Part shown: piece after piece, positions 21,169 to 59,044 of the stretch
Layout: the number at the start of each line of letters is the position of its first letter
How positions within the stretch are numbered: position 1 is the first letter of the stretch
Source of the DNA: a virus
Taxonomy: Duplodnaviria > Caudoviricetes
IMG/VR virus record: IMGVR_UViG_3300021426_000005
Direction: 5' to 3' (one strand)
DNA: 64,000 bases
Position numbers and translations under genes: made by a program
Notes under the pieces: generated by a model
What the model saw: only the letters and a program-made list of their open reading frames with translations
Databases searched by the model: none
Told to the model about the DNA's origin: nothing

Positions 21169-21169
21169 A

Positions 21170-22698: not shown

Positions 22699-22870
22699 TA
22701 CATGAAGAGCTTCCGCCACTTCATGATTAGATCAGTTATAAGACAGGTTTACACTACCATTACGTTCATTTTGTTCTGTCCAGATCAAGCTGGATCTCAT
22801 TTGTGGCTGATGAACGAACGTCCCACCAGAAATTTGCATTCACAATGTGGGAGAAAGAAACAGCCCTGGA

Positions 22871-23198: not shown

Positions 23199-23275
23199 TG
23201 GTGGAACATGAAGGACTTGAACCTTCGATCGTCCGGTTATGAGCCGGAAGCCTTAACCAGCTTGGCCAATGTTCC
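23199..23275 (-). tRNA. tRNA-Met or Ile2 (CAT)
   Basis: TCCGG-CTCATAA-CCGGA; CCA encoded. Confidence 0.9.
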
Positions 23276-30856: not shown

Positions 30857-31414
30857 TTAGCGGTCTAATGGTAATCCATAGCGTTGTAACTGTACATTCC
30901 ACCGACCTATTCCATTACCATCTGAGGTTTCCTGCAAGGTATTAAGCCACTGCCTGCTCCAATTCCAGCTATCAGCTACATCAAAACCAGGATAATTGTT
31001 TAAGACCCACAGCCACTTATGATGGAATATATACTCTGAATGTCCGGTCTTGATTGTTCCGTCAGGTTTCACTGTAATATAGTCTCCGACCTTGGGCTCT
31101 CTTGCAGTATCAAAATCAGGCGATTCCTGAAATGATACATCACCGGTTTTAGGGGAATACCGTATGCAGTTATATTCATAGTCTGGATATTCTTCTGATA
31201 GCACTTGTTCTGCATATTCTAAAATATCAAGAGGAATTACATCTTCGGCATAATCCCTATGGAAATATATATCTCCGCCGATTTCTTTACCCACACCGTA
31301 TTTTGAACTTCGTTTTATAGGTGAGCCTTTATATGTTTTAAGGGTAGATCCTACTTCAGTCTGCTTATCATTATACTCCTGCGGAGTAAGTGCAGCTCTT
31401 ATATAACGTTTCAT
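30857..31414 (-). CDS. MKRYIR-tagged protein resembling the accessory domain of the phosphorothioation-associated methyltransferase
   Basis: GKEIGGDIYFH...SFQESPDFD...IFHHKWLWV..YPGF. Confidence 0.55.
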   Translation of the reverse strand: MKRYIRAALTPQEYNDKQTEVGSTLKTYKGSPIKRSSKYGVGKEIGGDIYFHRDYAEDVIPLDILEYAEQVLSEEYPDYEYNCIRYSPKTGDVSFQESPDFDTAREPKVGDYITVKPDGTIKTGHSEYIFHHKWLWVLNNYPGFDVADSWNWSRQWLNTLQETSDGNGIGRWNVQLQRYGLPLDR

Positions 31415-31451
31415 TCATACTACTCCTCGCCATGCGTGATGTGAGCCTACA

Positions 31452-31883
31452 TCAATGTGAGATTTCTTCAAGAGTAAGCGCTTCATTCTTTACCACATCT
31501 TTCTTTGATTGGATATATGCTTCGATGTGCTGGGTGATTATTTCTTCCAGATCAATACCGTTTTTATCAATTATGGCCTTGGTAGTAGTTAGCAGACTAT
31601 CAGTAACATTATTGATCACTGTACGGAGCACATCAGCTTGAGTTTCCTTATTCCAGGCATCATTCTCCTTCAGTACCGCTACCGTGGTCTGCTCACAGTG
31701 ATCTACACAAGTAGCAACGGTAGTTGTTATGTCAGAAATAACTGCCTTGATGTTCTCATTATCGGTTTTAGACTTCAGCCATGAAGCCAGAGCTGGAAGT
31801 AGCACTGTAGTGATCACAGCAGCTAATATGGTAAATACCAATTCAATTATGGATTTAATTACATATTCATTCATAATAATCAC
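31452..31883 (-). CDS. holin-like membrane protein
   Basis: N-terminal TM; C-terminal IEAYI, LL-H-holin-like pattern. Confidence 0.6.
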   Translation of the reverse strand: MIIMNEYVIKSIIELVFTILAAVITTVLLPALASWLKSKTDNENIKAVISDITTTVATCVDHCEQTTVAVLKENDAWNKETQADVLRTVINNVTDSLLTTTKAIIDKNGIDLEEIITQHIEAYIQSKKDVVKNEALTLEEISH

Positions 31884-32362
31884 TTCTCCGGATCGTATTC
31901 AGAAAAATAAGTATTCATAAGGTCCCTCACAAGAACATTGTTGTGGTGTGATGCCTTATCTATCGTATCATTGAAATAGAGCTTTCCTTGGCTATTGAAA
32001 CCACAAAGATGATATTCTCGGTATAGGATTATCAGCTGTTTCAGTTCTTCACTGTAATCTTCATTTCCGGCTTCAATAGCAAGCTGAATCCGTTTCGATT
32101 TCTCAAGGATCTGGGTCTGTAAACCTGTCCGCTGCGCTGATGATAACTTAGTCAATTGTTTTGTTATATCATCAATTGCGGCTTTTGTTTCAGATATGGT
32201 ATCCTTAGTTTCGGCAGTTGTCTGCATTACGTCCTTGATGTACTTTTTGCCGGGATTGATTTTCTCCCAATTATTCAGAACTGCGACTAAAACGGCCGAA
32301 ATCAGCGGTGCGATTACCGATATTAAAGCAAGCATAGTTTCTTTATTCATCGAAATCATCAT
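31880..32362 (-). CDS. membrane protein, possible holin/lysis accessory
   Basis: N-terminal TM plus coiled coil; Y..YH..G.N..G. Confidence 0.55.
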   Translation of the reverse strand: MMISMNKETMLALISVIAPLISAVLVAVLNNWEKINPGKKYIKDVMQTTAETKDTISETKAAIDDITKQLTKLSSAQRTGLQTQILEKSKRIQLAIEAGNEDYSEELKQLIILYREYHLCGFNSQGKLYFNDTIDKASHHNNVLVRDLMNTYFSEYDPEK

Positions 32363-32699
32363 CCTTTACGGACTTTATCAGCCATTTTAGGTACTGGTCG
32401 GTTTCTTTATCGCAAAGAGGACAGATACCGGTGATTTTTTCGACTTCCTGATCTGATTCAACCAATGCTGAAATAAACACTCCGTGACAGGAATCGCATT
32501 CCGCTATGAAGTGGTTAGCGATATTGTTATCAAGTTCGATGTCTATATCATCTTCTTCAACATCATCAATGGTGTCCTGGATGTCCTCAACAGAATCCGA
32601 TATATCATCTATAGTATCCACAATATCGTAATCCTCTTCATCAGCAGCTACAATTCTTGTAGATGATTTTATGGGCTTCCTATTCTTACTCAGCTTCAT
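32343..32699 (-). CDS. acidic zinc-ribbon protein with basic tag
   Basis: MKLSKNRKPIKSSTRIVAA, D/E-rich region, CDSC/CPLC. Confidence 0.7.
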   Translation of the reverse strand: MKLSKNRKPIKSSTRIVAADEEDYDIVDTIDDISDSVEDIQDTIDDVEEDDIDIELDNNIANHFIAECDSCHGVFISALVESDQEVEKITGICPLCDKETDQYLKWLIKSVKDDDFDE

Positions 32700-32753
32700 G
32701 ATGTTCAGCTCCTTACATAAAAATAACGGTAGCAGATGTTATTCTACTACCGT

Positions 32754-32764
32754 TATATAAGGTT
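32754..32764 (-). promoter_or_regulatory. putative late promoter AACCTTATATA
   Basis: Exact motif followed by a hairpin. Confidence 0.7.
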
Positions 32765-32834
32765 AAACATACTTCTTATGTAAAGCCCCTTATGGTACAA
32801 GTATAATACACATAGGGGCTGTTGCAAACTGTTT

Positions 32835-33305
32835 TTATTTGCTAAGAATTCTATTAACTTCTTTCTCAAGTTCGTCAATGGAATATACTTGTTTAGAGCG
32901 ATTTCCAGCCACATTCCTCACGATTACGGTACCGTCTTCTCTGATAAATACCTGCGCAGATGTCCACTTTTTAGGGTCAGATCGTAATAGATAGTTCTTA
33001 CCGTCCATAGTCCAGGCTTCTTTAACATCGTAGGGACTAGATTCCACCCAATCTACAGCAACATCATAAGTGAGTTCATTTGTAGGGGCGACATAATTAG
33101 GATTATTGATTCTGCGCTTGATAACTTTAGCGTTATAGCCATTGTCGATGTAGTCCCTAACATCTTGTTTTGCCAGCTTCAAGGATTCTGAAGATGTGTC
33201 ATCATATACAGCTATATCTTCCCAACCATAGCCAGGAACATATTCCTGTGAAACATACACTTCTATCTTTTTAGCATTTCGAGCGGATTTAATATACCGT
33301 TTCAT
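32835..33305 (-). CDS. MKRYIKS-tagged protein
   Basis: Start moved to ATG 33305 after an AGGAG RBS. Confidence 0.75.
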   Translation of the reverse strand: MKRYIKSARNAKKIEVYVSQEYVPGYGWEDIAVYDDTSSESLKLAKQDVRDYIDNGYNAKVIKRRINNPNYVAPTNELTYDVAVDWVESSPYDVKEAWTMDGKNYLLRSDPKKWTSAQVFIREDGTVIVRNVAGNRSKQVYSIDELEKEVNRILSK

Positions 33306-33383
33306 TGTAGTATTCACTCCTATAGAAAATATTAGTAACACCCTTATTACTGGAGTGTTGCTCTTTTCAGTTCTTCGAGGTTG

Positions 33384-33674
33384 TCAATAACGTGTAAGGA
33401 AGTAATTCAGGCAACCTGTAACGATTTCATCATAAGTATGGGTGAAATCAAAGTCGTCCTGAATGTACTCCCCACCATCTTTCACAAGCCATATGTCATA
33501 CCTATCATCAGGATCTGGTGGGATAAGTTTGAATCTTGCATAGACATCACCATCATCAAATCTGATGATGACCTCTCTATCTGAAACCTCAACACCGTAG
33601 CCGAGGTCCTTAATTTTTTGGTACTGCCAAGAATCTTCCCAATTCTCACGGGAAGATTTGATGTATCTTTTCAT
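33384..33674 (-). CDS. MKRYIKS-tagged acidic protein
   Basis: ORF with tag. Confidence 0.75.
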   Translation of the reverse strand: MKRYIKSSRENWEDSWQYQKIKDLGYGVEVSDREVIIRFDDGDVYARFKLIPPDPDDRYDIWLVKDGGEYIQDDFDFTHTYDEIVTGCLNYFLTRY

Positions 33675-33693
33675 AGAATTACCCCTTTCCCGC

Positions 33694-34008
33694 TCAAAGT
33701 TTTGCTACCGTAGCATCAGCAGAATTGCCGACATAGAGTTCGCCAGTATCTTTGTCTTCGATAAGGATACCAGAACGATAACCATTGGTATCATTCCAGG
33801 CAATGCCTATGATCTCATAGTTCATTTCCATAGGATCAAATGTACCAGCCATATCTTCTGCAATACCGGAAGCTACCATATCCCTGAGTTCTTTTCTGGT
33901 GAATAGGTACTTACCGGGGAATCTGCTTGTCTGCTTGCCGTATTTCTTTCCGTTAGGTGCTTTCCATGCGGAAGCCATTACGGAAGTGGATTTGATATAT
34001 CGTTTCAT
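33694..34008 (-). CDS. MKRYIKS-tagged protein
   Basis: ORF with tag. Confidence 0.75.
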   Translation of the reverse strand: MKRYIKSTSVMASAWKAPNGKKYGKQTSRFPGKYLFTRKELRDMVASGIAEDMAGTFDPMEMNYEIIGIAWNDTNGYRSGILIEDKDTGELYVGNSADATVAKL

Positions 34009-34907
34009 CAGTATTCCTCCTCCCCAGAAATTGCATTGATAGCACGCTCTACAACATCATTTATCCGATCATTGTTATCTATATCTGTAAGATATTCCGG
34101 TACCACAACATTAGCCCATTCTTCTGGATCAACATCAATACCGCGATCATCACATACACTTAATACCATATTCTGCATTAAGGCATCAAGGTTTTCGTAT
34201 AATAGTATGCTGTAATATTCAGACTGACACATCTGAAGCATCCTAACCATATCAGTTGTACCGTCAAGTAAGCCATTAACTGCCGCTTCTTCATATGCAC
34301 CGCTTTCCCAAATTTCATATGCAGATTTGAACAAACTATCATAATAAATATCTACTTCACTATTTGCTTGTTCTGCAATTGCATCTCCAATATATGCGTC
34401 ACTATCGGAGTAGTTATATACAAACCCGTCTAGGCAGTTTTCTGGGGCAAGATGTTCATACGGATAAAAGTCATATTCTGCGTTTAGTACGTTATTGGTT
34501 GCAGCCATGATAGTCTTCCTTCCTTTACGCCTTGTGGAAGCCTGTACATCGTCTTCGTACATGATTTCGTCCTCGTAGTAGTCTCTCAGTTCTTCGGCAA
34601 TAGCCTTCCTCGTAGCAGGACTGAGCATTGCAACTGATCCTCTACCAGAGCCGAATTCTTTGTCGTATCTTCTTACACCTTCGTCTGCAACATACTGCCA
34701 GAGCTTAACCGCAAGATCACGGTCATACTTGCCCTTCTTGTACTTACGCTTCAGATTTTCGATTGCCGGAGTGATACGCTCACGGTAAAGATCTCCATCA
34801 TTTGTGATAGTAAGCACCAGCTCATCTACATCTTCTCTGGAAACCTGAGATCTGTCTACGGCAGCCGCCTTGACCGGTCTGTTATAAGCACGGTTTATCT
34901 TTTTCAT
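34008..34907 (-). CDS. tagged two-domain protein with a C-terminal Ocr-like DNA mimic
   Basis: Start MKKINRAYNRPVKAA; linker VQASTRRKGRKTIMAA; C-domain DAIAEQANSEVDIYY...GLLDGTTDMVRMLQ. Confidence 0.7.
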   Translation of the reverse strand: MKKINRAYNRPVKAAAVDRSQVSREDVDELVLTITNDGDLYRERITPAIENLKRKYKKGKYDRDLAVKLWQYVADEGVRRYDKEFGSGRGSVAMLSPATRKAIAEELRDYYEDEIMYEDDVQASTRRKGRKTIMAATNNVLNAEYDFYPYEHLAPENCLDGFVYNYSDSDAYIGDAIAEQANSEVDIYYDSLFKSAYEIWESGAYEEAAVNGLLDGTTDMVRMLQMCQSEYYSILLYENLDALMQNMVLSVCDDRGIDVDPEEWANVVVPEYLTDIDNNDRINDVVERAINAISGEEEY

Positions 34908-34957
34908 AAGTAAGTTCCTCCTTAATAAAGTGGTTGTGTTATAGTTACCTATAACAC

Positions 34958-34968
34958 TATATAAGGTT
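34958..34968 (-). promoter_or_regulatory. putative late promoter AACCTTATATA
   Basis: Exact motif followed by hairpin GTGTTATAG/CTATAACAC. Confidence 0.7.
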
Positions 34969-34989
34969 ACAAGCCGTGTTTTTTGCATT

Positions 34990-35208
34990 TCACGATGTAG
35001 ATATCGGTCGCAAAGTTATATCATTTTTGCACATATCGCACTTGAATGTGTGGGGCTTTCTACCTAAAAGGTATAGGTTTTCTGTATGATATTCCAGACC
35101 GCAATGAGGGCATTTGTACACCGGATCATTAGAATCATCACTGACACATATTGTTTCTTTTGCATCAGGATCTATCGGCCAGTCTAACGGATTATAGAAA
35201 TGTAACAT
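34990..35208 (-). CDS. small zinc-ribbon protein
   Basis: CPHC, CDMC. Confidence 0.6.
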   Translation of the reverse strand: MLHFYNPLDWPIDPDAKETICVSDDSNDPVYKCPHCGLEYHTENLYLLGRKPHTFKCDMCKNDITLRPISTS

Positions 35209-35220
35209 ATCACCAGCCCC

Positions 35221-36105
35221 TTACAGTATTGAAAGCCGGTCCGCAGTCTGAAGCATAGTAACCATGGGATATTTTTCATTAGCATCCATGAGATCATGTT
35301 TCTGAGCATCAGATACATCATACTCATTCATGTGCCAGCGGATAGCTAAAGCCTGCTCTGTTGTCAGCTTGAATATCTTCATAGCAATGAACATGGAAGT
35401 TACACCATGACCGAATGGAAGTGAAGAACCTTTGTACTTATAAGCAAGCTGCTGTTCCCATACACCAGTTTCTTCATTCTTGACGTTCTTCTTGTAGGGC
35501 TGGTAGAAATCAATCTTACACCAATCATGGCAGATAGCAGCCAGAATAGCCTGAGCCAGATCAACTTCTGCATAAGTATCTATGGTGCTGAGTTCGATTA
35601 TCTTATCTACAACCTTGAGGGTGTGTTTTGCAAGACCACCTGGGCAGCAGTCATGATATATGGTACTTGCCGGAGCTATAAAGAAATCGGTACTTTCAAG
35701 CCACTGAATAGCTCTTGTTACATACTTCTTAGCTGTATCATCATTGCCATGGGTGGCATAACAGCAAGCTATGATATAGTTTTCCAGCTCCTCCTTGATA
35801 AGTTTGATCTGCTCCTGATTAGGATCATCTTTTGCTAACAGCTCCTGGCTAACCCTACCACCGATGTAAACTTCCGGTCTGAACATGGTAAACCGAGTGA
35901 AGTTCTCCATAACCTCCGGAATATCATCAGCGCCGAATGTTTCATCAGCAGGTATGAAATGAGGCTCATGCTGGTCATCAGGGACTATAGTACCTACTTT
36001 AGAATTATCGGAAGTCATCGTTACGGTCCAGGAATCTGATATTCCTATACGCTTGAACCAGTATGCGAATGATTCCTTAAAAGACATTGTATTGATGTTA
36101 AACAT
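35221..36105 (-). CDS. HD-domain hydrolase (YhaM-like)
   Basis: FFIAPAS..YH...GGLAKH, CHDWCK, GHG, AIRWHM, AD. Confidence 0.85.
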   Translation of the reverse strand: MFNINTMSFKESFAYWFKRIGISDSWTVTMTSDNSKVGTIVPDDQHEPHFIPADETFGADDIPEVMENFTRFTMFRPEVYIGGRVSQELLAKDDPNQEQIKLIKEELENYIIACCYATHGNDDTAKKYVTRAIQWLESTDFFIAPASTIYHDCCPGGLAKHTLKVVDKIIELSTIDTYAEVDLAQAILAAICHDWCKIDFYQPYKKNVKNEETGVWEQQLAYKYKGSSLPFGHGVTSMFIAMKIFKLTTEQALAIRWHMNEYDVSDAQKHDLMDANEKYPMVTMLQTADRLSIL

Positions 36106-36175
36106 AAAATCAACTCCTTCATATACATTAACGATTTATATAAACTAGCAATACCGTACTTGTATCTTCACTATA

Positions 36176-36204
36176 ATTATACAATACCGTACATAGTGTG
36201 TCAA
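36176..36204 (-). promoter_or_regulatory. SigA-type promoter
   Basis: TTGACA-17 nt-TATAAT, perfect consensus. Confidence 0.85.
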
Positions 36205-36258
36205 TTGGTATAACGACCAAAAAGAAACTGCCGATATTGTTCATATCGGCAGCAAATG

Positions 36259-36633
36259 TCAATCTTCGGTATATCTTGAAGGATCATACTCAAACTTCAC
36301 CAGATCTGTGATGAATTTTCCTATTTCCTCCCACTTACCCAAGAAGTAATGTATACTATCATAGTAATCCATATCCTCTTGTTTAAGCTCTGGGAATTTC
36401 AGATTTGGTGTGAAGTAGTAGATGCCATCATCGGGATCCTGATTGGTAGTGACCGTAATTTCTGGTAGATACTTTGCATCACTACCCTTAGCTTTTAGGG
36501 TTATCTGCAAATCATCAGATACTTCCATATCATAGTCGTTTCTGTCAGCAGACTTCCACAGTTCAAGAAATGGTCCGTCAATCAGAGCATCAGAACTCTG
36601 AGCTGCGGTTATAGGTCTTTTTGTAATTTTCAT
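36259..36633 (-). CDS. tagged acidic protein
   Basis: MKITKRPITAA. Confidence 0.72.
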   Translation of the reverse strand: MKITKRPITAAQSSDALIDGPFLELWKSADRNDYDMEVSDDLQITLKAKGSDAKYLPEITVTTNQDPDDGIYYFTPNLKFPELKQEDMDYYDSIHYFLGKWEEIGKFITDLVKFEYDPSRYTED

Positions 36634-36644
36634 TGTGTATCACC

Positions 36645-36974
36645 TCAATCAATTATAATCGGAATTCTGTTTACTACTGTGATATAGTTATCACTATATC
36701 CAGAAGCGTGTGTATAATATCTGTTATCGATCCAGTTGTTGCCGATAGCGTCATCCCAGCCATACTTTGCATATCTCAAAGCCCGCTGGAACATCTTATA
36801 AGACGGATCGTTTATCAGCTTATCTCTCCAACGCTCTGCGGTTTTTCTGTCCTTATATACGATCAGATTATATCGTGCAGAGTAATTGTCCTGGGTCATT
36901 ACACCGAACTCAGGCTGATCTTCTTCGTAAGCAAAAGCTACATCATAGTCATTTGCTTTTATGTATCTTTTCAT
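36645..36974 (-). CDS. MKRYIKA-tagged protein
   Basis: ORF with tag, GAGG RBS. Confidence 0.75.
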   Translation of the reverse strand: MKRYIKANDYDVAFAYEEDQPEFGVMTQDNYSARYNLIVYKDRKTAERWRDKLINDPSYKMFQRALRYAKYGWDDAIGNNWIDNRYYTHASGYSDNYITVVNRIPIIID

Positions 36975-37414
36975 AATAGCACCTCACTTAAACTTAGTGT
37001 CTGTCCCAGAAATTCCAGCCAGATCCATCCGATCCAGAATTTCTTCCTCTGTTAGCTTTAGCTTCAAAAGTGGATTGTGTATCTAACCACAATGGTTCAT
37101 CACAATATACACCCCTTGATGCTAGTTTCGTAGCAACATCATATGTACTGCCAGTTTTCAATTTATACCAAGGTGAATCTAACATAGCCCAATCAGTATC
37201 TGTTATTTTGCTAAAATAACAATTTCCGGCATCCCAATCCATACCTATGACTGCACCTATCGGAAACCTATTCAAAACAGCTTCGTATTCCTGGATGTCA
37301 GCATAAGTAGTCTTTGAATATCCAGGAAATACAGGTAAATTGTTTAATTCCGTCAGTATACTTTCTTCTTTAGAACACCGAATATATCTTTTCATAACAG
37401 CACCTCACTTAAAC
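36961..37414. repeat. 33-bp direct repeat (36961-36993 and 37382-37414) bracketing one gene
   Basis: atRtatcttttcataaYagcacctcacttaaac, 2 mismatches. Confidence 0.85.
36994..37395 (-). CDS. MKRYIRC-tagged protein
   Basis: ORF with tag. Confidence 0.75.
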   Translation of the reverse strand: MKRYIRCSKEESILTELNNLPVFPGYSKTTYADIQEYEAVLNRFPIGAVIGMDWDAGNCYFSKITDTDWAMLDSPWYKLKTGSTYDVATKLASRGVYCDEPLWLDTQSTFEAKANRGRNSGSDGSGWNFWDRH

Positions 37415-37890
37415 ATATTGTTATCCCAATCCCCGGTATAGTCAAGCATAGCCTTTCTACTGGGAATGGTTTGAATCTCATGATACTTTATTCCCCATTT
37501 GTTGATCTTCAATACGTTCAGGGAATGTTTCTTCTTCTCTTTAATAAGATAATCGATATCCCTTATGTCAAGAATGAAAGCTCTTTGATAAGAAGCGAAC
37601 AGAACTATGATCACCCCATAAGTACCTTCTATCTTCGACTTTTTCAGAAGATTGTCATACTGATAGTCGGTTATCATTGAGAAGTCAAATCTATCGGCAT
37701 AAGTGGCTTTGCTTTCGATGTAGAACATATTAGGTTTCTTATACAGCGTGAAGTCACAGATGTTCTTACTGCCTACAAATCCTGTCATTTGGTCCTTTAT
37801 TCTATCAAAAGAATACCCTTCTTCTGGTCGGTCTAACCAGGCTTCTATCTTAGCTTCTGCCTTTTTACCTAACAGATCATCTCTTACCAT
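37405..37890 (-). CDS. Holliday junction resolvase, RecU-like
   Basis: PD-(D/E)xK pattern: ICDF...FYIESKAT, Q...L. Confidence 0.75.
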   Translation of the reverse strand: MVRDDLLGKKAEAKIEAWLDRPEEGYSFDRIKDQMTGFVGSKNICDFTLYKKPNMFYIESKATYADRFDFSMITDYQYDNLLKKSKIEGTYGVIIVLFASYQRAFILDIRDIDYLIKEKKKHSLNVLKINKWGIKYHEIQTIPSRKAMLDYTGDWDNNMFK

Positions 37891-37969
37891 AGTTCCTATC
37901 TCCTATATATACATTAACGACCGGACAAATAAAGAAATGGTGAGTTCCCATTGTTTAGGAACTCACCAT

Positions 37970-37980
37970 TATATAAGGTT
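37970..37980 (-). promoter_or_regulatory. putative late promoter AACCTTATATA
   Basis: Exact motif followed by a 13-bp hairpin. Confidence 0.65.
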
Positions 37981-38042
37981 ATTTATTACATATTGTGATG
38001 AATAGGTTTGTGGTCAACTGTCTTTGAGTCAGAGAATGATTC

Positions 38043-38558
38043 CTAAAATCGCCCCGCGCTCCAATAGCCATCTATGGCTCTTTTAGCCGCCTTTAGTGTG
38101 GAATCGGTTTCCCACATAACTTCATCAGTTTTGGGATCTATTGTATACCACCGCTTATTTTCATAGTTATAGTGTATGTTGAATCCTCGATATTCATACA
38201 AATCTTCACCTATACGCTTGGCTGTAGGTCTTTCACCACAATAATACTTAATTGCTGCTCTGTCGGGATTCGATAACATATCAGATTCCAATAGGTATGA
38301 TAAGTTATCCTTCTCTGTAAAATTGAGCCTAATAATGCCTGTAAATGGGGTAGTTGATAAAGCCTTTACAGCCTTTTTATGTATAGCTAAAAACGGACCC
38401 TCTTCATAGCCCTCTAATATAACTCGCAACGTGTCAAGACGATTCCACCTTTTTATGAACTCATCTTTGGATAAGTTGGAATATATTACATCACCGTTCT
38501 TAAATGTATATTGGTATCTTGCGTTGGGCTTAGAATCGCTTTTTATGTAGCGCATCAT
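38043..38558 (-). CDS. MRYIKS-tagged protein
   Basis: ORF with tag; start MMRYIKS. Confidence 0.7.
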   Translation of the reverse strand: MMRYIKSDSKPNARYQYTFKNGDVIYSNLSKDEFIKRWNRLDTLRVILEGYEEGPFLAIHKKAVKALSTTPFTGIIRLNFTEKDNLSYLLESDMLSNPDRAAIKYYCGERPTAKRIGEDLYEYRGFNIHYNYENKRWYTIDPKTDEVMWETDSTLKAAKRAIDGYWSAGRF

Positions 38559-38663
38559 ATGATCGCTTCCTTTCATAATGATTATACCATAACAGCAGTA
38601 TATTGTCAGTAGTAAATATCAACAATATACTGCTGTTCATTTTAGTTATTAAGTTATCAGTTA

Positions 38664-39635
38664 TTATTCATATGCCTCTGCTTTGTCATTGTACTCAGCG
38701 ATAAGATCATTGACGTTACGGCTGTTTATCTGGCTATCGATTGCGGAAGCATCATCAAGCACCTGATTGAAGTAGCTTTCGCCGTACTTATCATATACAG
38801 CCTTAAACTCGGGAGAAAGCTGATTTACCATGTTGCGACCAACATTGTAAAGTGTATCAGCAATATCTACAAGAGCTTTATGCTCTGAATTGATGTATCC
38901 GTCCTCTACATCAGCCCAATCCCTTAGTATCAGGAGCATACTTACAAGATCATAGGGGATTTTTCCAGAATATGCAGCCTTTATAGCTTTACAACCTGAT
39001 CTTTTTCTACTACTTACTACAGCACCTTTACGTCTTGAAGATTTTACTGATTTCTTACCACATGATCCGGTAACAGACTCTTCTGATACAAGGTTATCCA
39101 GATATTCTAAAGTCTGGTATGCAAAATCAGCAGGGGTAAAGCAAGAACTCAGGTCATCGGTTTCTTGCCATTCATCATTGAAATAATCATCAGGGTATTC
39201 ACGAATAATATCTTCTGCTGTGATAGTATCGGTAGTATCACCATTCATATACCAATTGTAAGCATCTTCATAGCAATACTCCCGGAACTCATCCCAGGTC
39301 ATTATCTTATAGCAGTTATCCATCTGGATATTAGATGCCTTTACTGGTCTTGTGGAAGCCTTAACAAAGGGATCTTTGATAGATTCCGTTCTGCCGTAGT
39401 CATCGGGATTTTCGCCGTTCTTAGTGATGAGTACATCAATGTAGTTGTTGCCGTTAGAATTGAGAAATCCTAGCAGTTCATCTTCGGTCATAGATTTGAT
39501 TCCTGGACCAGCACTGCCCCAGGTTTTCCATGTATTATCTTCGTCCAGAACCCATAGGATATCGTCAGGTGCATATCCAGCTCTAATAGATCTGTGGTTA
39601 GCATTTTTATTGATTTTCTTACAATATATCTTCAT
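38664..39635 (-). CDS. tagged three-domain polyprotein
   Basis: Basic linkers VKASTRPVKAS and KKSVKSSRRKG...KAIKAA. Confidence 0.75.
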   Translation of the reverse strand: MKIYCKKINKNANHRSIRAGYAPDDILWVLDEDNTWKTWGSAGPGIKSMTEDELLGFLNSNGNNYIDVLITKNGENPDDYGRTESIKDPFVKASTRPVKASNIQMDNCYKIMTWDEFREYCYEDAYNWYMNGDTTDTITAEDIIREYPDDYFNDEWQETDDLSSCFTPADFAYQTLEYLDNLVSEESVTGSCGKKSVKSSRRKGAVVSSRKRSGCKAIKAAYSGKIPYDLVSMLLILRDWADVEDGYINSEHKALVDIADTLYNVGRNMVNQLSPEFKAVYDKYGESYFNQVLDDASAIDSQINSRNVNDLIAEYNDKAEAYE

Positions 39636-41234: not shown

Positions 41235-43811
41235 TTAGATGTTTGTTATCGCATTGTAGATAGCCTCTGCGGCAGGCTTTGCAATACCCTTAACATACTC
41301 TTCGATAGCTTCCATATCGTAGTTGTTAGGATCAAGATTGCTTGAATTCCAGATAAGTTCAACCTTATCGATCTCATTACCCTTTACATAGATATAGAAT
41401 TCAAGTTCTCCGACTTCCTTACCACCACGGAAATCATAGTGGTAGGCATCAGGCAGAGCATATGATACAACGTCTATATCATCAGTATCGAATGTAGCAC
41501 TGATTGTATAAGTAACGCCTACATATGTGCTAGAAGCATAATACTCAAAGGTATCTTCCATGATAGTAGCGTATTCATCAACCTTAGCAAGCTCAGTTGT
41601 AGGAAGAACTTCACGCTCTGCGATTCTGTAGAGTTCATCTACCGTAGACTCAGATATTGCTTCTCCATTGGAATCGAAGCCATAACCGTAGTCTTCGTCT
41701 TCGCCATTGATAGGCTCAAGGTCTTCATAGGTAGCCGCTTCAACAGTCTTACCAGCTACACTCTTTACAGCGGCAGCCAGCTCCTCCGCATCATCATCTT
41801 CATCACCAAGAATAGGTGTGATCTCATCGGTAGGCTGAATATACACTACATCATCTTCGGTACCGTCATAGAATGACAGTGCTTCATCTGTAACTGCACA
41901 GCCGATACCTTCGTATCCGTCATCGTGAAGAATACCAAGGGTCATATCTGCAAGCATCTGATTGTACTCTGCTGCTGAGATATTTTCTGATGCACACTTT
42001 ACCGACTTAGCATCACTTCTTCTCACGGTAGAAGCTGTGATACCATTAGCAAGGAAACTACCTAATCCATTCTGGAAATCCGTATATGCCTTTATGCGGC
42101 TATCTTCATAGGCATCACGAATTTCAGATAGTCTTTCAAGCCATTCAGGTGTCAAATATTGATCATCAAAGTCAACCTGCGGTGCATAGATTTGTCTGTT
42201 ACCAGGGTAAAGCTGAATATAGAACTCATTTCCGTTTACAGCATTCTGATTGTATATGTAGTTTACCGGATCTTCATCAAGCGGATTAGCGAGATCTGCT
42301 TCAAGCATTTCCTCATACAAGTCATGATCCATAGCATCAAGGAAAAACCAAAAATCAGTTTCAACAGCTTCGGGACTCAAACCAGCATCTACTGACCAAT
42401 CATCCGGACCGTTGTACTTCACACTGTCAGTATTCAGCCAAGCACCACTACTGGGATCCTGAAGGAAAGCATCTACATATTCCAGCATATCGCTGTCTTC
42501 AAAGCCGTCGTACTCATAAGAATCATTCAGCATATCATTGACATCTTCTTCAGAAGACTCCCATGTATCTGCCTTTATAGCCTTACGTCTGATTTTCGAT
42601 GTACACTTCACTGACTTAGTACCAGTCACCTCTTCTGTAGCAGGGAAGATCTCAAAATCGAGAATACCGTCTCCATCTTCGTAGTTATTTTCATCATCTA
42701 CGAAATCATAGTATATAAGCTCACAGAATGTATAAGCTGTCTCAGAAGCATCACCATATTCATCATCGAACAGAGGGTCGCCGAACTGATTACACCACTC
42801 CTGGAATTTCAGTCGGGTCTCATCGTCCTGACAGAGTGGAAGTATAGCATCATACATATCAGCTCCTGGCTGACCTTCATATATCTTCTCGCCGTTGAAG
42901 TACATTACAATGTCTCCACCCTCATACCAAGCGGCAGTTACTTTAGTGCCGTTTCTTCTCTTGGTAGAAGCACCAATACCCATTGACTTCCAGACTTTAT
43001 CCCTGAAATCTGCGATTTCGTTTGTTACAACGAACTCACCATCAAAATTCTCAGCATAAACGTCAGGATCAATGTCTATCATATCACCGGTCTTGAAGTA
43101 AATGATATTAACATACAAGCCCTGCATGAGAAGTTCATGTGCATAACTTTCTACTTCTGACCATTCATCAGGTCCGAAATATCTATCTGCGTATGCACCG
43201 CTGCGATTTGAACCAAGGTATCCGGTTACTGCGAAACCGTTTTCATTCCACGAAGCCTTTACAGCCCTACGTCTTTTAGCTGACTTAGAAGCCTTAATAT
43301 TGAACTTTCTTTTATAAACAGACCCACCTATAGGGGATGCGTATTTACGTCCCTTAAAAGTGAATGTAGCCGTACCATCGAGAGCTGCTTGCTTTGCTTC
43401 TTCAGGAGTATCATAAATCTCTTTAGATATATCCCATGCAAATTCACCATTTTCAGCTTCATTCATAGATCTACGAATTCTATACCCATATGGACGTTTA
43501 ACTACCCGAAGCTGCGCCCCATCATCATCTTTGAGAACGATTTCAGCATCATTTTCACGAACAAGCTCCGCACCGGCTTTTACAGATTTCTTACCACAAG
43601 CAGATTCAACTACTTCGTAGCCCTTCTTCTTAGCCCAGGCTATCGCACCCTTTTTACTTTTCCAATTGTTAGGGGCAGAAGTAAGAACCTGATTATCCTC
43701 TGCATTTTTCAAACCGTAATACTCTCCGGATTGACCCTTATTGATAACATAAGGAGTGACCTTGAGGGTAGAACTGTTGGAAGAAGCAGTTACTTTGAAT
43801 TTTCTCATCAT
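41235..43811 (-). CDS. highly acidic multi-domain polyprotein with repeated basic linkers
   Basis: About 7 segments separated by K/R-rich [IV]-x-[AS]-[AS] linkers. Confidence 0.8.
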   Translation of the reverse strand: MMRKFKVTASSNSSTLKVTPYVINKGQSGEYYGLKNAEDNQVLTSAPNNWKSKKGAIAWAKKKGYEVVESACGKKSVKAGAELVRENDAEIVLKDDDGAQLRVVKRPYGYRIRRSMNEAENGEFAWDISKEIYDTPEEAKQAALDGTATFTFKGRKYASPIGGSVYKRKFNIKASKSAKRRRAVKASWNENGFAVTGYLGSNRSGAYADRYFGPDEWSEVESYAHELLMQGLYVNIIYFKTGDMIDIDPDVYAENFDGEFVVTNEIADFRDKVWKSMGIGASTKRRNGTKVTAAWYEGGDIVMYFNGEKIYEGQPGADMYDAILPLCQDDETRLKFQEWCNQFGDPLFDDEYGDASETAYTFCELIYYDFVDDENNYEDGDGILDFEIFPATEEVTGTKSVKCTSKIRRKAIKADTWESSEEDVNDMLNDSYEYDGFEDSDMLEYVDAFLQDPSSGAWLNTDSVKYNGPDDWSVDAGLSPEAVETDFWFFLDAMDHDLYEEMLEADLANPLDEDPVNYIYNQNAVNGNEFYIQLYPGNRQIYAPQVDFDDQYLTPEWLERLSEIRDAYEDSRIKAYTDFQNGLGSFLANGITASTVRRSDAKSVKCASENISAAEYNQMLADMTLGILHDDGYEGIGCAVTDEALSFYDGTEDDVVYIQPTDEITPILGDEDDDAEELAAAVKSVAGKTVEAATYEDLEPINGEDEDYGYGFDSNGEAISESTVDELYRIAEREVLPTTELAKVDEYATIMEDTFEYYASSTYVGVTYTISATFDTDDIDVVSYALPDAYHYDFRGGKEVGELEFYIYVKGNEIDKVELIWNSSNLDPNNYDMEAIEEYVKGIAKPAAEAIYNAITNI

Positions 43812-43819
43812 TAAACACC

Positions 43820-44035
43820 TCACTCAATTATTGCATTTGAAATGCTATTGTTAATGTTTACAAGATTCTGACTAAGCTCCAAAGCTATTGATAATGCCTC
43901 TTTGCCTTTATCAGTGCTGGTCCGTCCGAGCTTTTCAAGTCCTTCGATAATGTAATCGAAATCTGCTTCCAGATCCTTTATAGCATTGTCTAAGGCTTCA
44001 TTGCCCTCAGTAGCAGCTAATATCATTCGTTTCAT
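43820..44035 (-). CDS. tagged small helical protein
   Basis: Start moved to MKRMILAA. Confidence 0.65.
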   Translation of the reverse strand: MKRMILAATEGNEALDNAIKDLEADFDYIIEGLEKLGRTSTDKGKEALSIALELSQNLVNINNSISNAIIE

Positions 44036-44081: not shown

Positions 44082-44240
44082 ATCACACTTATTCTTATAT
44101 ATACTATAACGACACAGACCACATTTAATTAAAACAAAAATAGCGACCTGCTAAAATGCAAGTCGCTGTTGTATATATTGACGAATAAGGTTGTATTGCC
44201 CTATAGGGGATTTTCTTACTGAAAAGGTAAAATGCACAAA

Positions 44241-46499
44241 TCACTTACTTCTTCCAAGTAGAAAATCAAACAGTTCAGGATTCTTTTTCAGATCCAGTTT
44301 ACCGTCTACGATATAGTTTGAGATAGCGCGTTTATCTTCAAGTATCTGATATACACGTTCATCTACCGTGTCTTTGGAAAGTAAGGTGTATACCTTTAGT
44401 GGTTCTGTACTGCCTATACGATTTGCTCTGTCTTCTGCTTGTGTCTTATCAGCTGGTGTCCAGCAATCATCGTAAAAGATCACGTTGGTAGCAGCTGTAA
44501 GCGTAAGAGAAACACCCATAGCACCGATAGTACCAAGCATTATCTTGTACTCAGGGTTGTTCTGAAAGACCCTTTTATGTTTCTCTCTATCTGCTTCATT
44601 CATAGAGCCGGTATAGCAACAAGTCTTATACTTCTTCGATAAGAACTTGTATATAGTCCTTAGTGGATCTATCCAGTTTGAGAAGATAATGACCTTTTCA
44701 TTTCTTTCGACCACATCATCTACTAGCTCAATGAGCCGTTTCAGCTTTGCATTGCAGGCTATATACTTGTCATCGACGACTATAGTATCATCTACCAGCT
44801 CTGGACTTCCGTTGACCTGACGTAATCTGAGCATTGCCGTAAGCGGATTCAGTGTGCTGAGAATTTCTTCTCGCTGCTGATAGAGTTCTTCTACTATGGC
44901 TTCATACAGCGCTTGCTGCCGGGGAGTATTTTCAACGTATTCGGTATAATATATCTTCGGAGGGAGATCAAGAACTTCTGACTTCATTCGGCGGATCATA
45001 TTGCCTTGGAGCATATCTTTCAGAATAGGTATATTCTTGTAGCCCATTATTTCATGATCACCGTATCCGCCAAATATGCAGAACTCCCTTGACCACATAT
45101 AATAGCTTTTGAAAGCATGACCATCTACCAGCTTCAATGGTGTGAATACATCAGTAGGCTTGTTTTTGATAGGCGTACCAGTCATGGGGATCCACTGTAC
45201 AGCTTTCTCAGTTCGCTTCTTGATATCCAGTATGACCTTACCCTGAGTAGATTGTGGAGACATATTTTTGTGACATTCATCTATAGCTATCATCTGCAAT
45301 TTACCTTCGTTTATCATCTTAATGATAGCTTCCTCAAGGGTGAATATCTTTCCGACCTTAGTTCTACCAAGGGCTTCTATGTTGGTTATAAGGAAGTATG
45401 GAAGCTCAGGGGCATCTTCTTTGCCATACATATGACCGGATACAAGATCCTCTACCTTATCAGGACCTGTGGTATTGAACCTCAAGCTGCCATTGCGTTT
45501 CTTTCTTGTACCAAGAATATAGCCAATCTCCTGACCATTGGTGTGCTTTGCTATGTCTTCCTGCCAGGAATACTTAGCTGAGTTCACACAAGTAATTATG
45601 AGACAGTGCTTGTAGTTGTAGATCTTACGCTGATACATGGCGTAGTTGAGGACTTCTAAGGTCTTACCGCAGTTGTGGACCAGAATACCATTTACAAAGA
45701 AGTTCCGGTACGGATCAGCCATAACTATATCGTATGTCAATTCACAGCACAAAGGTGTCTTACTAACTACATGAGACCATGTAGGTATCATATATTCATC
45801 AACAGTAAAGACTTCCGAATCGGTAACTAAATCAGCTAGTTCTACATAGCCATTTCTGGTAAAGAATTGATGGTCTTCCGTAGCTTTTACTTTGTACCCG
45901 TTTTCAAGTTCCAGTTCGTATACAAGTTTGTATCCACTACACTTCATGTCACGGATTCGATTTTGCTTAGTTACATTATTCACTTCATCATAGGAAGAAG
46001 TTGTAAACGTATATTGCGGATTCGACTTAAATAGCCTATATAGGGTTTCCAATGGTCTAATAATACGGTGATCATTGACGTAGAAGGTGATTGAAGCATC
46101 ACCAGCTATGCAGCCCATATCATCGGCCAGTATGAAGCCATTTCTGCCCTTGCTCTTAGCGTACTTCAAGAAAGCAAGCTGGTGATCATACAGCTTGTAA
46201 CCTTCTTTAACATAATGATCCACATCAGATATATCTGCATCCGGTATCAGGTTTATATCGGTAGAATCTATAGAAGCATTCTCATTTATAGCTTCTTCCG
46301 ACTGGATCTGTAATGTACCTTCGTAAGCAGTACCTTTGATCTCGTTTAGAAGCCACCCAAGATGACCTTTTGGAATAGTCCAGTATTTGTTTTCTGGTAC
46401 CCATTTTCTGCCGGGTACATTTTTGACCATAGCTATGAGTTGGGGATCATATTTGAATTTCAGTATGTAGAGGTCATTTTCCTGAATAGCATAAAACAT
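44241..46499 (-). CDS. SNF2-family helicase (HARP-like N-terminus) with intein
   Basis: LADDMG[intein]CGKT, DECH, MTGTP, QAEDRANRIG. Confidence 0.92.
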   Translation of the reverse strand: MFYAIQENDLYILKFKYDPQLIAMVKNVPGRKWVPENKYWTIPKGHLGWLLNEIKGTAYEGTLQIQSEEAINENASIDSTDINLIPDADISDVDHYVKEGYKLYDHQLAFLKYAKSKGRNGFILADDMGCIAGDASITFYVNDHRIIRPLETLYRLFKSNPQYTFTTSSYDEVNNVTKQNRIRDMKCSGYKLVYELELENGYKVKATEDHQFFTRNGYVELADLVTDSEVFTVDEYMIPTWSHVVSKTPLCCELTYDIVMADPYRNFFVNGILVHNCGKTLEVLNYAMYQRKIYNYKHCLIITCVNSAKYSWQEDIAKHTNGQEIGYILGTRKKRNGSLRFNTTGPDKVEDLVSGHMYGKEDAPELPYFLITNIEALGRTKVGKIFTLEEAIIKMINEGKLQMIAIDECHKNMSPQSTQGKVILDIKKRTEKAVQWIPMTGTPIKNKPTDVFTPLKLVDGHAFKSYYMWSREFCIFGGYGDHEIMGYKNIPILKDMLQGNMIRRMKSEVLDLPPKIYYTEYVENTPRQQALYEAIVEELYQQREEILSTLNPLTAMLRLRQVNGSPELVDDTIVVDDKYIACNAKLKRLIELVDDVVERNEKVIIFSNWIDPLRTIYKFLSKKYKTCCYTGSMNEADREKHKRVFQNNPEYKIMLGTIGAMGVSLTLTAATNVIFYDDCWTPADKTQAEDRANRIGSTEPLKVYTLLSKDTVDERVYQILEDKRAISNYIVDGKLDLKKNPELFDFLLGRSK
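45672..46112 (-). mobile_element. mini-intein (147 aa, no endonuclease)
   Basis: CIAGDA...ATEDHQF...YDI...NFFVNGILVHN|C, inserted in Walker A. Confidence 0.92.
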
Positions 46500-52840: not shown

Positions 52841-54307
52841 TCAGAAAGTGCCGAGGATACGTCCGGATACAACGGAAGCGGGGTTTACAACCTCCATTGC
52901 AAGCATTGTGCCGTAACCCTGCTGTACGCTTGCGTTGGCAAGTGTTACGGGTGCAGTCTCTGTGAAAGGCATATATTCACCAAACAGAGCACTGTTTCTG
53001 CGAATGTCGTTGCTCTTGCAGCCCATTACCCACTTGTTAGGATCATAGTTAGGATCAACAATAACGTTGAACTGATCCAGAGTACCGAGCTTGTAAGGAC
53101 CTACAGTGTCTTCCAGAGAAGCAGACTTGAAGCCGTTGATCATCTTCATGTAAGAAGCTACGTTAGTACCAGCAATGATCCAGTTAGGTCTTGCGATATG
53201 TGTCTCATTGTAGATAGAAGAAGCTGCCTGGTCAAGTTTGAGCTTGAACATATTCAGGTAGTCAGAAGGCATTACTGCTGTCTGAACAGGTGCAGCATCC
53301 CAGTTGTACTGAGGCTTGTAAGAAGCAGCCTGAGCCAGCTTCTGGAAGCCCATTGTGTTGATCTCAGCGGTCATTTCGCTGAAAGCGGCTTCCTTGCTCA
53401 TATCAGCTACAGAAGCGCCGTATTCATTCTGTGCAGCGAAAGCACTGTATACAGACCAGTAGCAAGCCAGCTCCTTGACCTCAGCAACAAGGTTGATCTC
53501 GTCAAGCTGGAGGTAGCCCTTACCCATCTGAGCGCCGTACTCACCGTCAGCGTTAGGACCAACAGTCTCATTGTCGTACTGATATGTAGCCTTTACTGTG
53601 TCGCCAGCTGTAAGTGTTACTGCGGAGCTGAATGTGATAGCACCTGTGCTGTAGTCGATAGTACCAGCGGCAGCACCAGCAGCTGTTACGATATTGCCGG
53701 CACCGTCATCTGTGTAAGCAGTTGTTGTACCGCTGATGTCAGTTACGATTGTTACAGAGCCGGGAAGTACAGGGAGATATGCGAGGCTGCCTGTTGTGAA
53801 TGCACCAGCAGCAGACTCAACAATCTCATTCTTGACAACTCTGCCAGTGAAGTTGGGATCGATACCCTGACGGTTTACGAATGGGCTGCTGAGGATTGTT
53901 CCCTTCTGAGTCTCACCCTTGGTGTTCTCAGTGATGAACTTGAAGTAAGGGATCAGCTGCTGTCTGCTCTTCATTGCTACTGAACCGAAAACGTCAAGGA
54001 TCAGGAGCTTCTGAACGAACATAGGAAGCAGTTCAAGGAAGTCAGGTCTTGCAGCGATATTGGATGTATTTGTAGCACCCATGATGCTTGCTCTTGTACG
54101 GCAGTTGTTTGTGATCTGACGAGCGAACTGTGCCTGCTCAGGTGTCAGACCTGCGAAATTAGCCTTGATTGCTGTATTTGCTCTTCTTGCCTGTCTATTC
54201 TGAATACCAGATGTGATGCTGGTGCTTGCAGTTACAGGTCTACGTCCCATAGGGCGATTAGCCTTGGCAGAAATGCCGGTAGGACGGAATGTCTTCTTGA
54301 TTGCCAT
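52841..54307 (-). CDS. major capsid protein (T4 gp23-like)
   Basis: L.C.WS...A...YG.......SEMTAEIN, NWIIAG, G.L..F.V.VDP, GEYMP; follows the protease. Confidence 0.85.
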   Translation of the reverse strand: MAIKKTFRPTGISAKANRPMGRRPVTASTSITSGIQNRQARRANTAIKANFAGLTPEQAQFARQITNNCRTRASIMGATNTSNIAARPDFLELLPMFVQKLLILDVFGSVAMKSRQQLIPYFKFITENTKGETQKGTILSSPFVNRQGIDPNFTGRVVKNEIVESAAGAFTTGSLAYLPVLPGSVTIVTDISGTTTAYTDDGAGNIVTAAGAAAGTIDYSTGAITFSSAVTLTAGDTVKATYQYDNETVGPNADGEYGAQMGKGYLQLDEINLVAEVKELACYWSVYSAFAAQNEYGASVADMSKEAAFSEMTAEINTMGFQKLAQAASYKPQYNWDAAPVQTAVMPSDYLNMFKLKLDQAASSIYNETHIARPNWIIAGTNVASYMKMINGFKSASLEDTVGPYKLGTLDQFNVIVDPNYDPNKWVMGCKSNDIRRNSALFGEYMPFTETAPVTLANASVQQGYGTMLAMEVVNPASVVSGRILGTF

Positions 54308-54323: not shown

Positions 54324-55703
54324 TTATATAGAAATTATTTCATTGTCATCATCTACAGCATCTGTCAGGTAAAAATCATCTACAACTGGTTGTGCAGCGA
54401 TATTGCAGGTATTCATACTAGCTTCTACAAGCGAATGAATCTCTGCTACAGATGTCTGTGGAGATACTTGTATATTCATGGAATTTACACCAAGAGCATT
54501 TGCGTACATTTTCGCATATGCTGTCTGGAAAGCGGCTAACTGCTGCTGACACTCAATCAGTTCATCCGATAGTCTCTGATTCTCTGCATCAAGGTTTGAT
54601 GTCTGGGATCTTACTTCTCTGCTTGCTGTGACGGTTTCACGAAGTCTGGATTTCAGATCCTTGATAGTAGACTGCTGATCGGCATTGTTCTGATTGCTTG
54701 CTGTAATCCTTTGCTTATATATAAGGTTAGCTTTTTTAAGGCCTTCAACCTCATTATTTAATTTTTTGATATCTGCGGACATTCTTTTTGTCCTTGCAGC
54801 CATAATGGACTTAGCATCTTCAGCTTCATCAAGGCTTGCAAGCACATCATCTATCTGTGCAGTAGTTATCCGCTGTATTGCATTGAACTTTCTTCTGTAA
54901 GCAGATTCTATAGTCCTTTTGCTCTGCTTTGTCTTTTCCAGGTCAGACTTTAGAGCTTTATTTTCAGAAAGGCATTCGATATATGCACAAGTCATAGCTT
55001 CGATACGCTCACCTGATAAATCAATAGAAGAAGCATTGATAGCCTCTTTTCTGGCTTCAAGGGCAGCAAACTCAGCTGACTGCGGTGCAAACTGCTGCTG
55101 AAGGATATTGATTGCTGTAGAACTTGTTATAGCTGATAGGTTGTCCCTTACAGCTGCACATACAGACTGATACTTCTTTCTGTCTGCCAGATCTGTAGAT
55201 GCCGCTATTTCCTTGAACTCCGGTATAGACTCAGGATAAGCTGGGAAAGCTACCAGATCGAAACCACGGAACATAAATGTTTCAGGGTCAACAGAATTAC
55301 CAACTATGTCGCCAGCTCCTCTGATAGAAATACCCCACTTCACCCCGGCATTTATGAACTTCTTTACAATCTGTCCGACCGGTGTATCAATCAGATTGAA
55401 CTTGGCATATACCTTGCCGTTATCTTCGATCCACATATCGGTGAGCACAATACAGCCATTCTCAAATTCCTGGCAAGCTGGATCCTCCGGATGTCCCAAG
55501 AATCCGATGAACCAACCGTATTTGATACCTTCTTTGTATTCTTCTGATTCAAGAACATTTTGCATTACTTCGGTAGTAATATCCAGACCATTCTTATTAG
55601 TGATCATGCTGTCAAGAGCTTCACCTTCATATGTACCGATAATGGAGGAATCGATCGTACTAGCCTGGACACTACGTTTTGTCTTTCCACTCATCGTTAT
55701 CAC
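54324..55703 (-). CDS. prohead protease (T4 gp21-like) fused to a coiled-coil scaffold-like region
   Basis: GFLGHP, DTPVG, GISIRGAG, FDLVAFPA. Confidence 0.85.
   Translation of the reverse strand: MITMSGKTKRSVQASTIDSSIIGTYEGEALDSMITNKNGLDITTEVMQNVLESEEYKEGIKYGWFIGFLGHPEDPACQEFENGCIVLTDMWIEDNGKVYAKFNLIDTPVGQIVKKFINAGVKWGISIRGAGDIVGNSVDPETFMFRGFDLVAFPAYPESIPEFKEIAASTDLADRKKYQSVCAAVRDNLSAITSSTAINILQQQFAPQSAEFAALEARKEAINASSIDLSGERIEAMTCAYIECLSENKALKSDLEKTKQSKRTIESAYRRKFNAIQRITTAQIDDVLASLDEAEDAKSIMAARTKRMSADIKKLNNEVEGLKKANLIYKQRITASNQNNADQQSTIKDLKSRLRETVTASREVRSQTSNLDAENQRLSDELIECQQQLAAFQTAYAKMYANALGVNSMNIQVSPQTSVAEIHSLVEASMNTCNIAAQPVVDDFYLTDAVDDDNEIISI
54718..54728 (-). promoter_or_regulatory. 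putative late promoter upstream of the major capsid gene
   Basis: Exact AACCTTATATA inside the protease CDS, about 410 nt before the capsid start. Confidence 0.6.
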
Positions 55704-58172: not shown

Positions 58173-58175
58173 ATC

Positions 58176-59024: not shown

Positions 59025-59044
59025 ATAAATCACCTCTTATTTAA

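Follow-up and report, generated by a model that had tools for sequence, protein, structure and literature searches.

A gene in an uncultured tailed phage raises the question of why several small modules should be encoded end to end in one chain, and what purpose the short basic stretches between them serve. The gene lies in the 64,000-nucleotide (nt) stretch of DNA analyzed here, referred to as the window, which derives from IMG/VR virus record IMGVR_UViG_3300021426_000005 (Duplodnaviria; Caudoviricetes). Its open reading frame (ORF) occupies 41235..43823 on the minus strand and encodes 862 amino acids (aa) if read from a GTG codon. The likely start is the ATG at 43811, which yields 858 aa (41235-43811) and agrees with the database form of the protein; this ATG lies 9 nt past the stop of the upstream gene and is preceded by the ribosome-binding stretch GAGTGAGGTG. 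The whole protein has a mass of 96.5 kDa and a net charge of -91. An earlier examination of the DNA letters without database searches, referred to here as the sequence-only reading, had described it as a protease-cleavable polyprotein: about seven acidic domains joined by copies of a tag, packaged as one unit and cut apart by the prohead protease. We consider it nearly certain that the gene encodes a modular polyprotein whose modules are shuffled between relatives.

Six basic linkers split the chain into seven segments, designated A to G (Table 1). All six linkers named in the sequence-only reading were recovered letter for letter at the residue positions given in the table, and its count of seven segments also stands. 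Its description of the segments as acidic holds for five: segments C to G are strongly acidic, with core isoelectric points (pI) of about 4.05-4.10 and net charges of -11 to -36, whereas module A is the sole basic module in the chain and module B is near neutral, with a net charge of -3 or +1 depending on where its boundaries are placed. Close homologues begin with a leader identical to that of the query, and others possess longer basic leaders with 2-3 copies of the motif that also marks the linkers.

The independence of the segments is evident from their distribution among relatives. A search of 1.84 billion representative proteins returned 229 relatives (E <= 0.001), many of them single-module proteins. 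In 49 long (577-1485 aa) and 13 short homologues, differing subsets of A-G are combined with other modules in varying order; C-D is inverted to D-C in many of them, and G is nearly always last. When these 62 relatives were cut at the motif and the pieces clustered, approximately 78 module families were obtained. Module lengths are tight (D, 103-118 aa; C, 97-112 aa; A, 67-71 aa), and the motif flanks every instance.

Exchange between near-identical proteins places the boundaries more precisely. Four relatives share a near-identical backbone with the query (98-100% identity in A, 95-100% in D, 95-98% in F, and 86-96% in G) and carry other modules in between, their blocks of identity stopping and starting at residues 79, 279, 291, and 406, all of which are motif positions. 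In P0005, 100% identity to the query stops exactly at residue 79, within linker A/B, and the high-identity blocks of P0005 and P0006 start at residues 279 and 291 and end at residue 406. Shuffling by way of DNA repeats was considered as a possible route and found unsupported, the gene containing only weak linker repeats (28 nt at 79% and 16 nt at 88%).

The sequence-only reading had also proposed looking in related phages for homologous segments encoded as stand-alone tagged genes or arranged in other orders, and both were found: alongside the C-D and D-C arrangements, modules A, C, D, and G also occur alone, with a short leader on many of the C, D, and G copies. Stand-alone G, at 159-198 aa, accounts for more than 20 clusters; most begin with the seven-residue leader M-K-[KR]-Y-I-[KR]-[SA], and one has instead a long basic leader in which the motif occurs twice. 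Stand-alone C (P0058, P0088, P0185, and P0186) and stand-alone D (P0084, P0108, and P0063) are likewise found behind leaders, and the leaders on stand-alone C, D, and G, whether short or long, end in the motif. Module B directly follows the N-terminal leader in P0054 and P0059, and B and D were seen directly behind N-terminal leaders in the set P0054, P0059, and P0052. Stand-alone A comprises dozens of clusters of 52-143 aa, often starting at the domain's own Met without a leader. A related locus, L004, combines these patterns. It retains the gene order of the window, namely capsid protein, lysin, SNF2 helicase, polyprotein, and leader-tagged genes; its 1106-aa polyprotein contains mostly different modules separated by the same joints, and G is a separate leader-tagged gene (10001-10543) located three genes past the polyprotein, in a run of about 10 short-leader genes.

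Structure prediction yielded a consistent picture. The AlphaFold2 model of G alone has a predicted local distance difference test (pLDDT) score of 84.6 and a predicted template modelling (pTM) score of 0.80. The model of residues 295-858 (D-E-F-G; pTM 0.33) shows four folded units, with pLDDT below 50 at protein residues 396-440, 592-611, and 688-709 (model residues 102-146, 298-317, and 394-415), which correspond to the three linkers. Modules D to G are thus predicted as separate units rather than as one interdependent structure, in line with the separable cargo domains envisaged in the sequence-only reading. Architectures, breakpoints, stand-alone genes, synteny, and predicted structure all identify the segments as independent modules, and none of these hangs on how the motif is defined.

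What, then, are the joints? In its strict form the motif is [KR]-x(1-2)-[VI]-x-[AC]-[ASGTD]. It occurs at 8 sites in the polyprotein, compared with a mean of 0.30 over 5000 shuffles (maximum 3; 0/5000 gave 8), and all 8 fall within the 14% of residues that belong to the leader or the linkers. A looser four-residue form occurs 19 times against 8.8 expected. Across 357 non-identical sites in the family, the sequence logo reads K-K-S-[V63/I36]-K75-[A62/S18/C15]-[S56/A19/G10] (numbers are percentages), with the allowed residue sets limited by the search pattern used. A recurrent S-A-C-G-K-K ahead of the motif resembles a possible lipobox, a reading that was rejected, there being no hydrophobic signal region and the positions being internal.

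The motif is not peculiar to this gene. It also lies near the N-termini of the Gp23-family capsid protein, the S77 protease, and many unrelated small proteins encoded nearby. This distribution bears on the view that the polyprotein is an uncleaved multidomain internal or virion protein, in which the linkers act as flexible DNA- or scaffold-binding tethers and the motif as a binding element. Such a view would fit the Lys/Arg-rich composition and predicted disorder of the linkers, and there is a precedent in the phage N4 virion RNA polymerase, which is packaged unprocessed (PMC5512222). We nevertheless judge it quite unlikely: in the capsid protein, the protease, and many unrelated small proteins the motif is placed 7-30 residues from the N-terminus, which fits a propeptide boundary and hardly a tether, the linkers are bracketed by paired sites, and the residues dominating the third and fourth motif positions are tiny, as around a scissile bond.

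Side observations extend the range of leaders. Runs of unrelated small genes starting with the seven-residue leader M-K-R-Y-I-[KR]-[SA] are present at 30857-38576 (minus strand) of the window and at 9620-16600 of L004; this leader is also found on stand-alone copies of module G and so connects the short and long leader types. A 323-aa neighbour of the polyprotein (38664-39635, minus strand), whose leader contains the motif, has another site near residue 100 and an internal basic linker with two sites at about residues 186-222; it resembles a mini-polyprotein of two or three modules belonging to this system.

A candidate enzyme for cutting at the motif is encoded in the window. The prohead protease is probably active because its H71 and S126 align with H85 and S140 of T4 gp21, which we take to be the catalytic pair in T4. 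It bears a 286-residue C-terminal extension, in which motif sites near residues 220, 265, 330, and 355 recur in relatives. In seven related loci (L005-L011; capsid identity 67-72%), the protease motif always lies 8-10 residues ahead of the conserved start, and the internal sites at about 220 and 265 are again present. The capsid proteins of the same loci always carry the motif directly before a conserved T-S-I-T-S-G, with 1-3 tandem basic motif copies upstream, the leader length and copy number being variable. In both proteins the motif thus stays directly ahead of the conserved beginning of what looks like the mature sequence. A second conserved site in the capsid protein lies directly before F-x-x-L-x-P-x-Q. 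Two more distant IMG/VR contigs (L012 and L013; capsid identity 34%) lack the basic leaders, and their protease has a T4-like L-I-E at its start, a pattern which suggests that cleavage specificity changed within this branch of S77 proteases. Searches of the PDB with phmmer, using the capsid protein and the protease, gave no match.

A cleaved chain could also serve as sacrificial core or scaffold filler in the manner of T4 gp22, that is, an acidic polyprotein chopped up in the prohead and removed from it ahead of DNA packaging or in its course, rather than delivered. T4 gp22 is acidic and is cut many times by gp21 (PMC9026906), and the polyprotein is very acidic and contains many sites, its gene sharing a late block with the head genes. 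However, an essential scaffold would not be expected to show module turnover between near-identical phages or to be accompanied by small leader-tagged module genes; the modules are predicted by AlphaFold2 to be well-folded globular units, and the C-terminal extension of the protease, with its conserved internal sites, could already supply a scaffold. We consider this explanation unlikely.

Genomic position raises a third alternative, namely that the polyprotein is a non-virion cytoplasmic multidomain protein, that any processing is carried out by another phage or host protease, and that any likeness to the leaders of the capsid protein and the protease stems from composition. What precedes the gene is indeed the SNF2 helicase gene with its own terminator rather than a head gene: a terminator-like hairpin (44142-44167) lies after the helicase gene, and the next unit opens with a small leader-tagged gene followed by the polyprotein. 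Against this, the strict motif is nearly confined to the late/structural block at 30-56 kb of the window and nearly absent from the replication and modification genes, the gene order linking capsid protein and polyprotein is kept in L004, and no other protease was seen among the selected ORFs of the window that were scanned. We therefore regard a cytoplasmic protein as very unlikely.

The interpretation we favour, and hold to be moderately probable, is that the polyprotein is head cargo with prohead-protease sites at its joints, the motif most likely being recognised by the phage's own T4 gp21-type (S77) prohead protease. The leader and each linker carry one to three motif copies with the consensus K-K-S-[VI]-K-[ACS]-[SAG], and under this model these basic stretches would steer the precursor into the core of the prohead. 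As the head matures, the protease would cut after a small residue, at [VI]-x-[A/C/S]↓[S/A/G]; the scissile bond (↓) is placed after the third motif residue because the T4 gp21 and herpesvirus assemblin analogies both point there. Where two sites bracket a linker, a basic peptide of 7-25 residues would be released, while a joint with a single site, such as the K-S-I-K-C-S that separates D from C in relatives, would undergo one cut. Seven proteins of about 7-22 kDa each would thereby be freed inside the head and would exit with the DNA at infection. The locus would then be an exchangeable cassette of early-acting proteins, and because the same joints flank each module, a module could enter or leave the chain, change its place in it, or stand as a separate gene with its own leader. 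We infer head targeting, cleavage, and ejection by analogy with T4 IPI-III and Alt and with the ejection proteins of SPN3US and phiKZ; the exact scissile bond and a host-takeover or anti-defence role are likewise inferences. Of the cargo string cut by the prohead protease that the sequence-only reading had envisaged, the independent, exchangeable modules and the motif common to the capsid and protease N-termini are borne out by the data, and packaging and cutting belong to the proposed part.

Several points weigh against this interpretation. The linkers were defined partly through the motif and basic composition, which makes the confinement of the sites to linkers a partly circular finding, and the loose four-residue form is information-poor, with 4 copies inside modules. 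The assignment of the motif to the protease derives from co-occurrence, not biochemistry; the motif is unlike every characterised S77 specificity (L/I-x-E in T4, A/S/G-x-E in phiKZ and SPN3US), and an alignment with T4 gp23, itself weak, places no motif exactly at the T4 cleavage position. Some stand-alone copies of G and A have no leader. Finally, no module has a recognisable function, either in sequence libraries, which were searched for all of them, or in fold searches, which covered D-G.

These searches can be summarized as follows. Pfam, PHROG, and PADLOC gave nothing above noise for the whole protein or for any module, and no peptidase domain was detected in the chain. PDB sequence profiles of G and E returned nothing at E < 0.19. 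The structure comparison proposed for each segment in the sequence-only reading was carried out for D-G, and Foldseek found no PDB match for G or for the D-G model at E <= 0.001; against BFVD, its sole match was an uncharacterised protein of an uncultured myovirus (8e-5). In VIA-align, G resembled SPLUNC1 (Z 8.8; root-mean-square deviation 3.3 Å over 113 residues), BPI (Z 8.3), and Aha1-N (Z 6.7), values in the range that the tool calls common. The similarity to SPLUNC1 and BPI reflects a helix-wrapped-by-sheet fold and is borderline; no function was drawn from it. Module F gave generic alpha/beta matches (Z about 6), and D and E were barely probed in this multidomain search.

The sequence-only reading had noted that strongly acidic small domains are typical of DNA mimics and anti-CRISPRs. 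This suggestion gained no sequence match and, for D-G, nothing from Foldseek against the PDB. What is left in its favour is charge, which is weak evidence for DNA mimicry because acidity is shared by the protease and by most of the leader-tagged neighbours; the DNA-mimic claim is unsupported. Quick module turnover between near-identical phages fits an arms-race role, as circumstantial evidence, and an injected effector or anti-defence role is a tentative possibility. A broader and doubtful proposal is that, in a Firmicute-type gut/rumen myovirus clade, the T4-type head protease switched to a herpesvirus-like V/I-x-Ala↓Ser specificity and this site became a universal joint for shuffled cassettes of small acidic effectors that enter ready-made with the genome, some of these effectors being DNA mimics or anti-defence proteins of new kinds; on that proposal, the motif would allow the whole set of virion-delivered proteins to be listed from sequence.

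Should the joints be cut as proposed, the motif would constitute an address-and-cut code, readable from sequence, that names head-carried, delivered proteins of an uncultured clade; within the window it would cover about 20 genes, and among relatives about 80 module families. The small, fast-turnover acidic modules would then be prime candidates for new early host-takeover or counter-defence proteins, S77 head proteases would be capable of an Ala/Ser-type specificity like that of their herpesvirus cousins, and phage heads could be filled with several foreign proteins through a compact tag-and-linker design modelled on this arrangement. Even with uncleaved joints, the locus remains a clear case of domain-cassette shuffling at defined joints.

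The features discussed above are located in Table 1. Their source is a large uncultured phage of about 150 kb, contigs with the identical polyprotein reaching 152.6 kb, and the GC content is about 40%. No match to the polyprotein was found by tblastn among 50,697 phage records. The nearest cultured capsid proteins, about 26% identical, belong to Bacillus phage HSE3, Listeria phage LIS04 (Thornevirus), and Streptococcus phage GXN1; a literature search on these cultured relatives (HSE3, Thornevirus, and GXN1) found no proteomic data on processing. Elsewhere in the window, the gene for the SNF2-family helicase (44241-46499, minus strand) is split by an intein-like insert (Pfam Intein_splicing, 1.4e-8, 35.1 bits vs a cut-off of 35.8), and its 607-aa homologue in L004 is free of the insert. 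Putative tail-fibre genes at 57168-60433 (minus strand) encode BspA-type leucine-rich repeats (weak matches to Pfam LRR_5), with near-identical N-termini in three consecutive genes. Nine tRNA genes are clustered at 20093-23275 (minus strand), including four tRNA-Leu genes (taa, caa, and two tag).

Table 1. Segments of the polyprotein and associated genes, with their coordinates in the window.
Feature	Residues	Coordinates	Strand	Remarks
N-terminal basic leader	1-10	43782..43811	-	ends in first motif copy, V-T-A-S
Module A	11-67	43611..43781	-	basic, pI 9.65; widespread small domain
Linker A/B	68-80	43572..43610	-	motif at each end (V-E-S-A, V-K-A-G)
Module B	81-160	43332..43571	-	near neutral
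Linker B/C	161-187	43251..43331	-	three motif copies; net charge about +10
Module C	188-278	42978..43250	-	acidic
Linker C/D	279-294	42930..42977	-	motif at each end
Module D	295-394	42630..42929	-	commonest internal module (29 instances); predicted folded unit (AlphaFold2), model residues 1-100
Linker D/E	395-415	42567..42629	-	three motif copies; disorder predicted
Module E	416-590	42042..42566	-	largest acidic module
Linker E/F	591-614	41970..42041	-	three motif copies; disorder predicted
Module F	615-682	41766..41969	-	small acidic alpha/beta unit
Linker F/G	683-693	41733..41765	-	two weaker motif copies; disorder predicted
Module G	694-858	41238..41732	-	C-terminal in nearly all relatives
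Small leader-tagged gene		43820..44035	-	first gene of the transcription unit containing the polyprotein
Major capsid protein (Gp23 family)		52841..54307	-	Pfam Gp23, 8e-19; N-terminal basic region with motif
Prohead protease (Peptidase_S77, T4 gp21 type)		54324..55703	-	Pfam 2.6e-8, 34 bits vs cut-off 27; PHROG head maturation protease, 2e-22

The literature was searched for a polyprotein of this kind and no description was found, though parts of the design have counterparts in several known systems. In T4, capsid-targeting sequences and gp21 processing operate on the internal proteins IPI-III and on Alt, with cleavage after the Glu of L/I-x-E and a hydrophobic P3 residue (PMC9026906). The resemblance to IPI, IPII, IPIII, and Alt lies in a gp23-type capsid, a gp21-type (S77) protease with catalytic-aligned His and Ser, a leader ending in the motif, and a set of poorly conserved, unrelated small proteins that in T4 are loaded into the head and injected (PMC9026906); here they are known from sequence alone. 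T4 cargo proteins are single-module and carry L/I-x-E, whereas here seven modules share one chain, the leaders and linkers are basic, and the motif, [VI]-x-[ACS]-[SAG], has no Glu at the corresponding position.

The giant phages phiKZ, 201phi2-1, and SPN3US (gp175/gp245) offer a second comparison. In SPN3US, the S77-type protease gp245 processes both head and ejection proteins at A-x-E, cleaving a single propeptide several times (PMC10052503). Shared features are the S77-type protease, the many head proteins, the multi-site precursors, and the presence of ejection proteins among the cargo (PMC10052503). In these phages, N-terminal propeptides are removed at A/S/G-x-E, no chain of many independent mature modules has been described, and no sequence similarity to the polyprotein was found.

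Polyvalent proteins (Iyer et al. 2017) come closest in architecture to a multi-protein chain. They join unrelated domains in one polypeptide predicted to travel with the DNA, with proteolytic release also predicted and assemblin-like peptidases present in some (PMC5512222). Their 2-15 distinct domains are combined combinatorially, comparable to the seven modules here and the roughly 78 families in 62 relatives. Polyvalent proteins, however, contain recognisable enzyme and DNA-binding domains of known conflict-related families, often together with an embedded peptidase (MPTase or assemblin-like), whereas no module here matches Pfam; the joints here are explicit short motif linkers, and the protease is proposed to act in trans.

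Herpesvirus assemblins share the gp21 fold. They cut at hydrophobic-x-A↓S/T, as in the YLQA-T and VQA-S sites of pseudorabies virus (PrV) (PMC4498786). The polyprotein motif has the same hydrophobic-x-Ala↓Ser/Thr form as the R and M sites of the protease-scaffold precursor pUL26 (PMC4498786), a similarity so far seen at the level of sequence. The protease itself also resembles pUL26 in its layout, with a protease domain, a site right after it (about residue 220 here, conserved in relatives), and a long C-terminal assembly region. The protease of the window nevertheless scores as Peptidase_S77 and not as the herpesvirus family (S21), and herpesviruses do not string cargo modules together through the site. 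Leader-tagged, gp21-processed cargo in T4, wide S77 processing in giant phages, and predicted polyvalent proteins were thus already known. What differs here is a bead-on-string chain of small modules from unknown families, with explicit short joints that a protease is proposed to cut in trans, an Ala/Ser-type motif in place of Glu, and acidic cargo attached to leaders and linkers that are basic.

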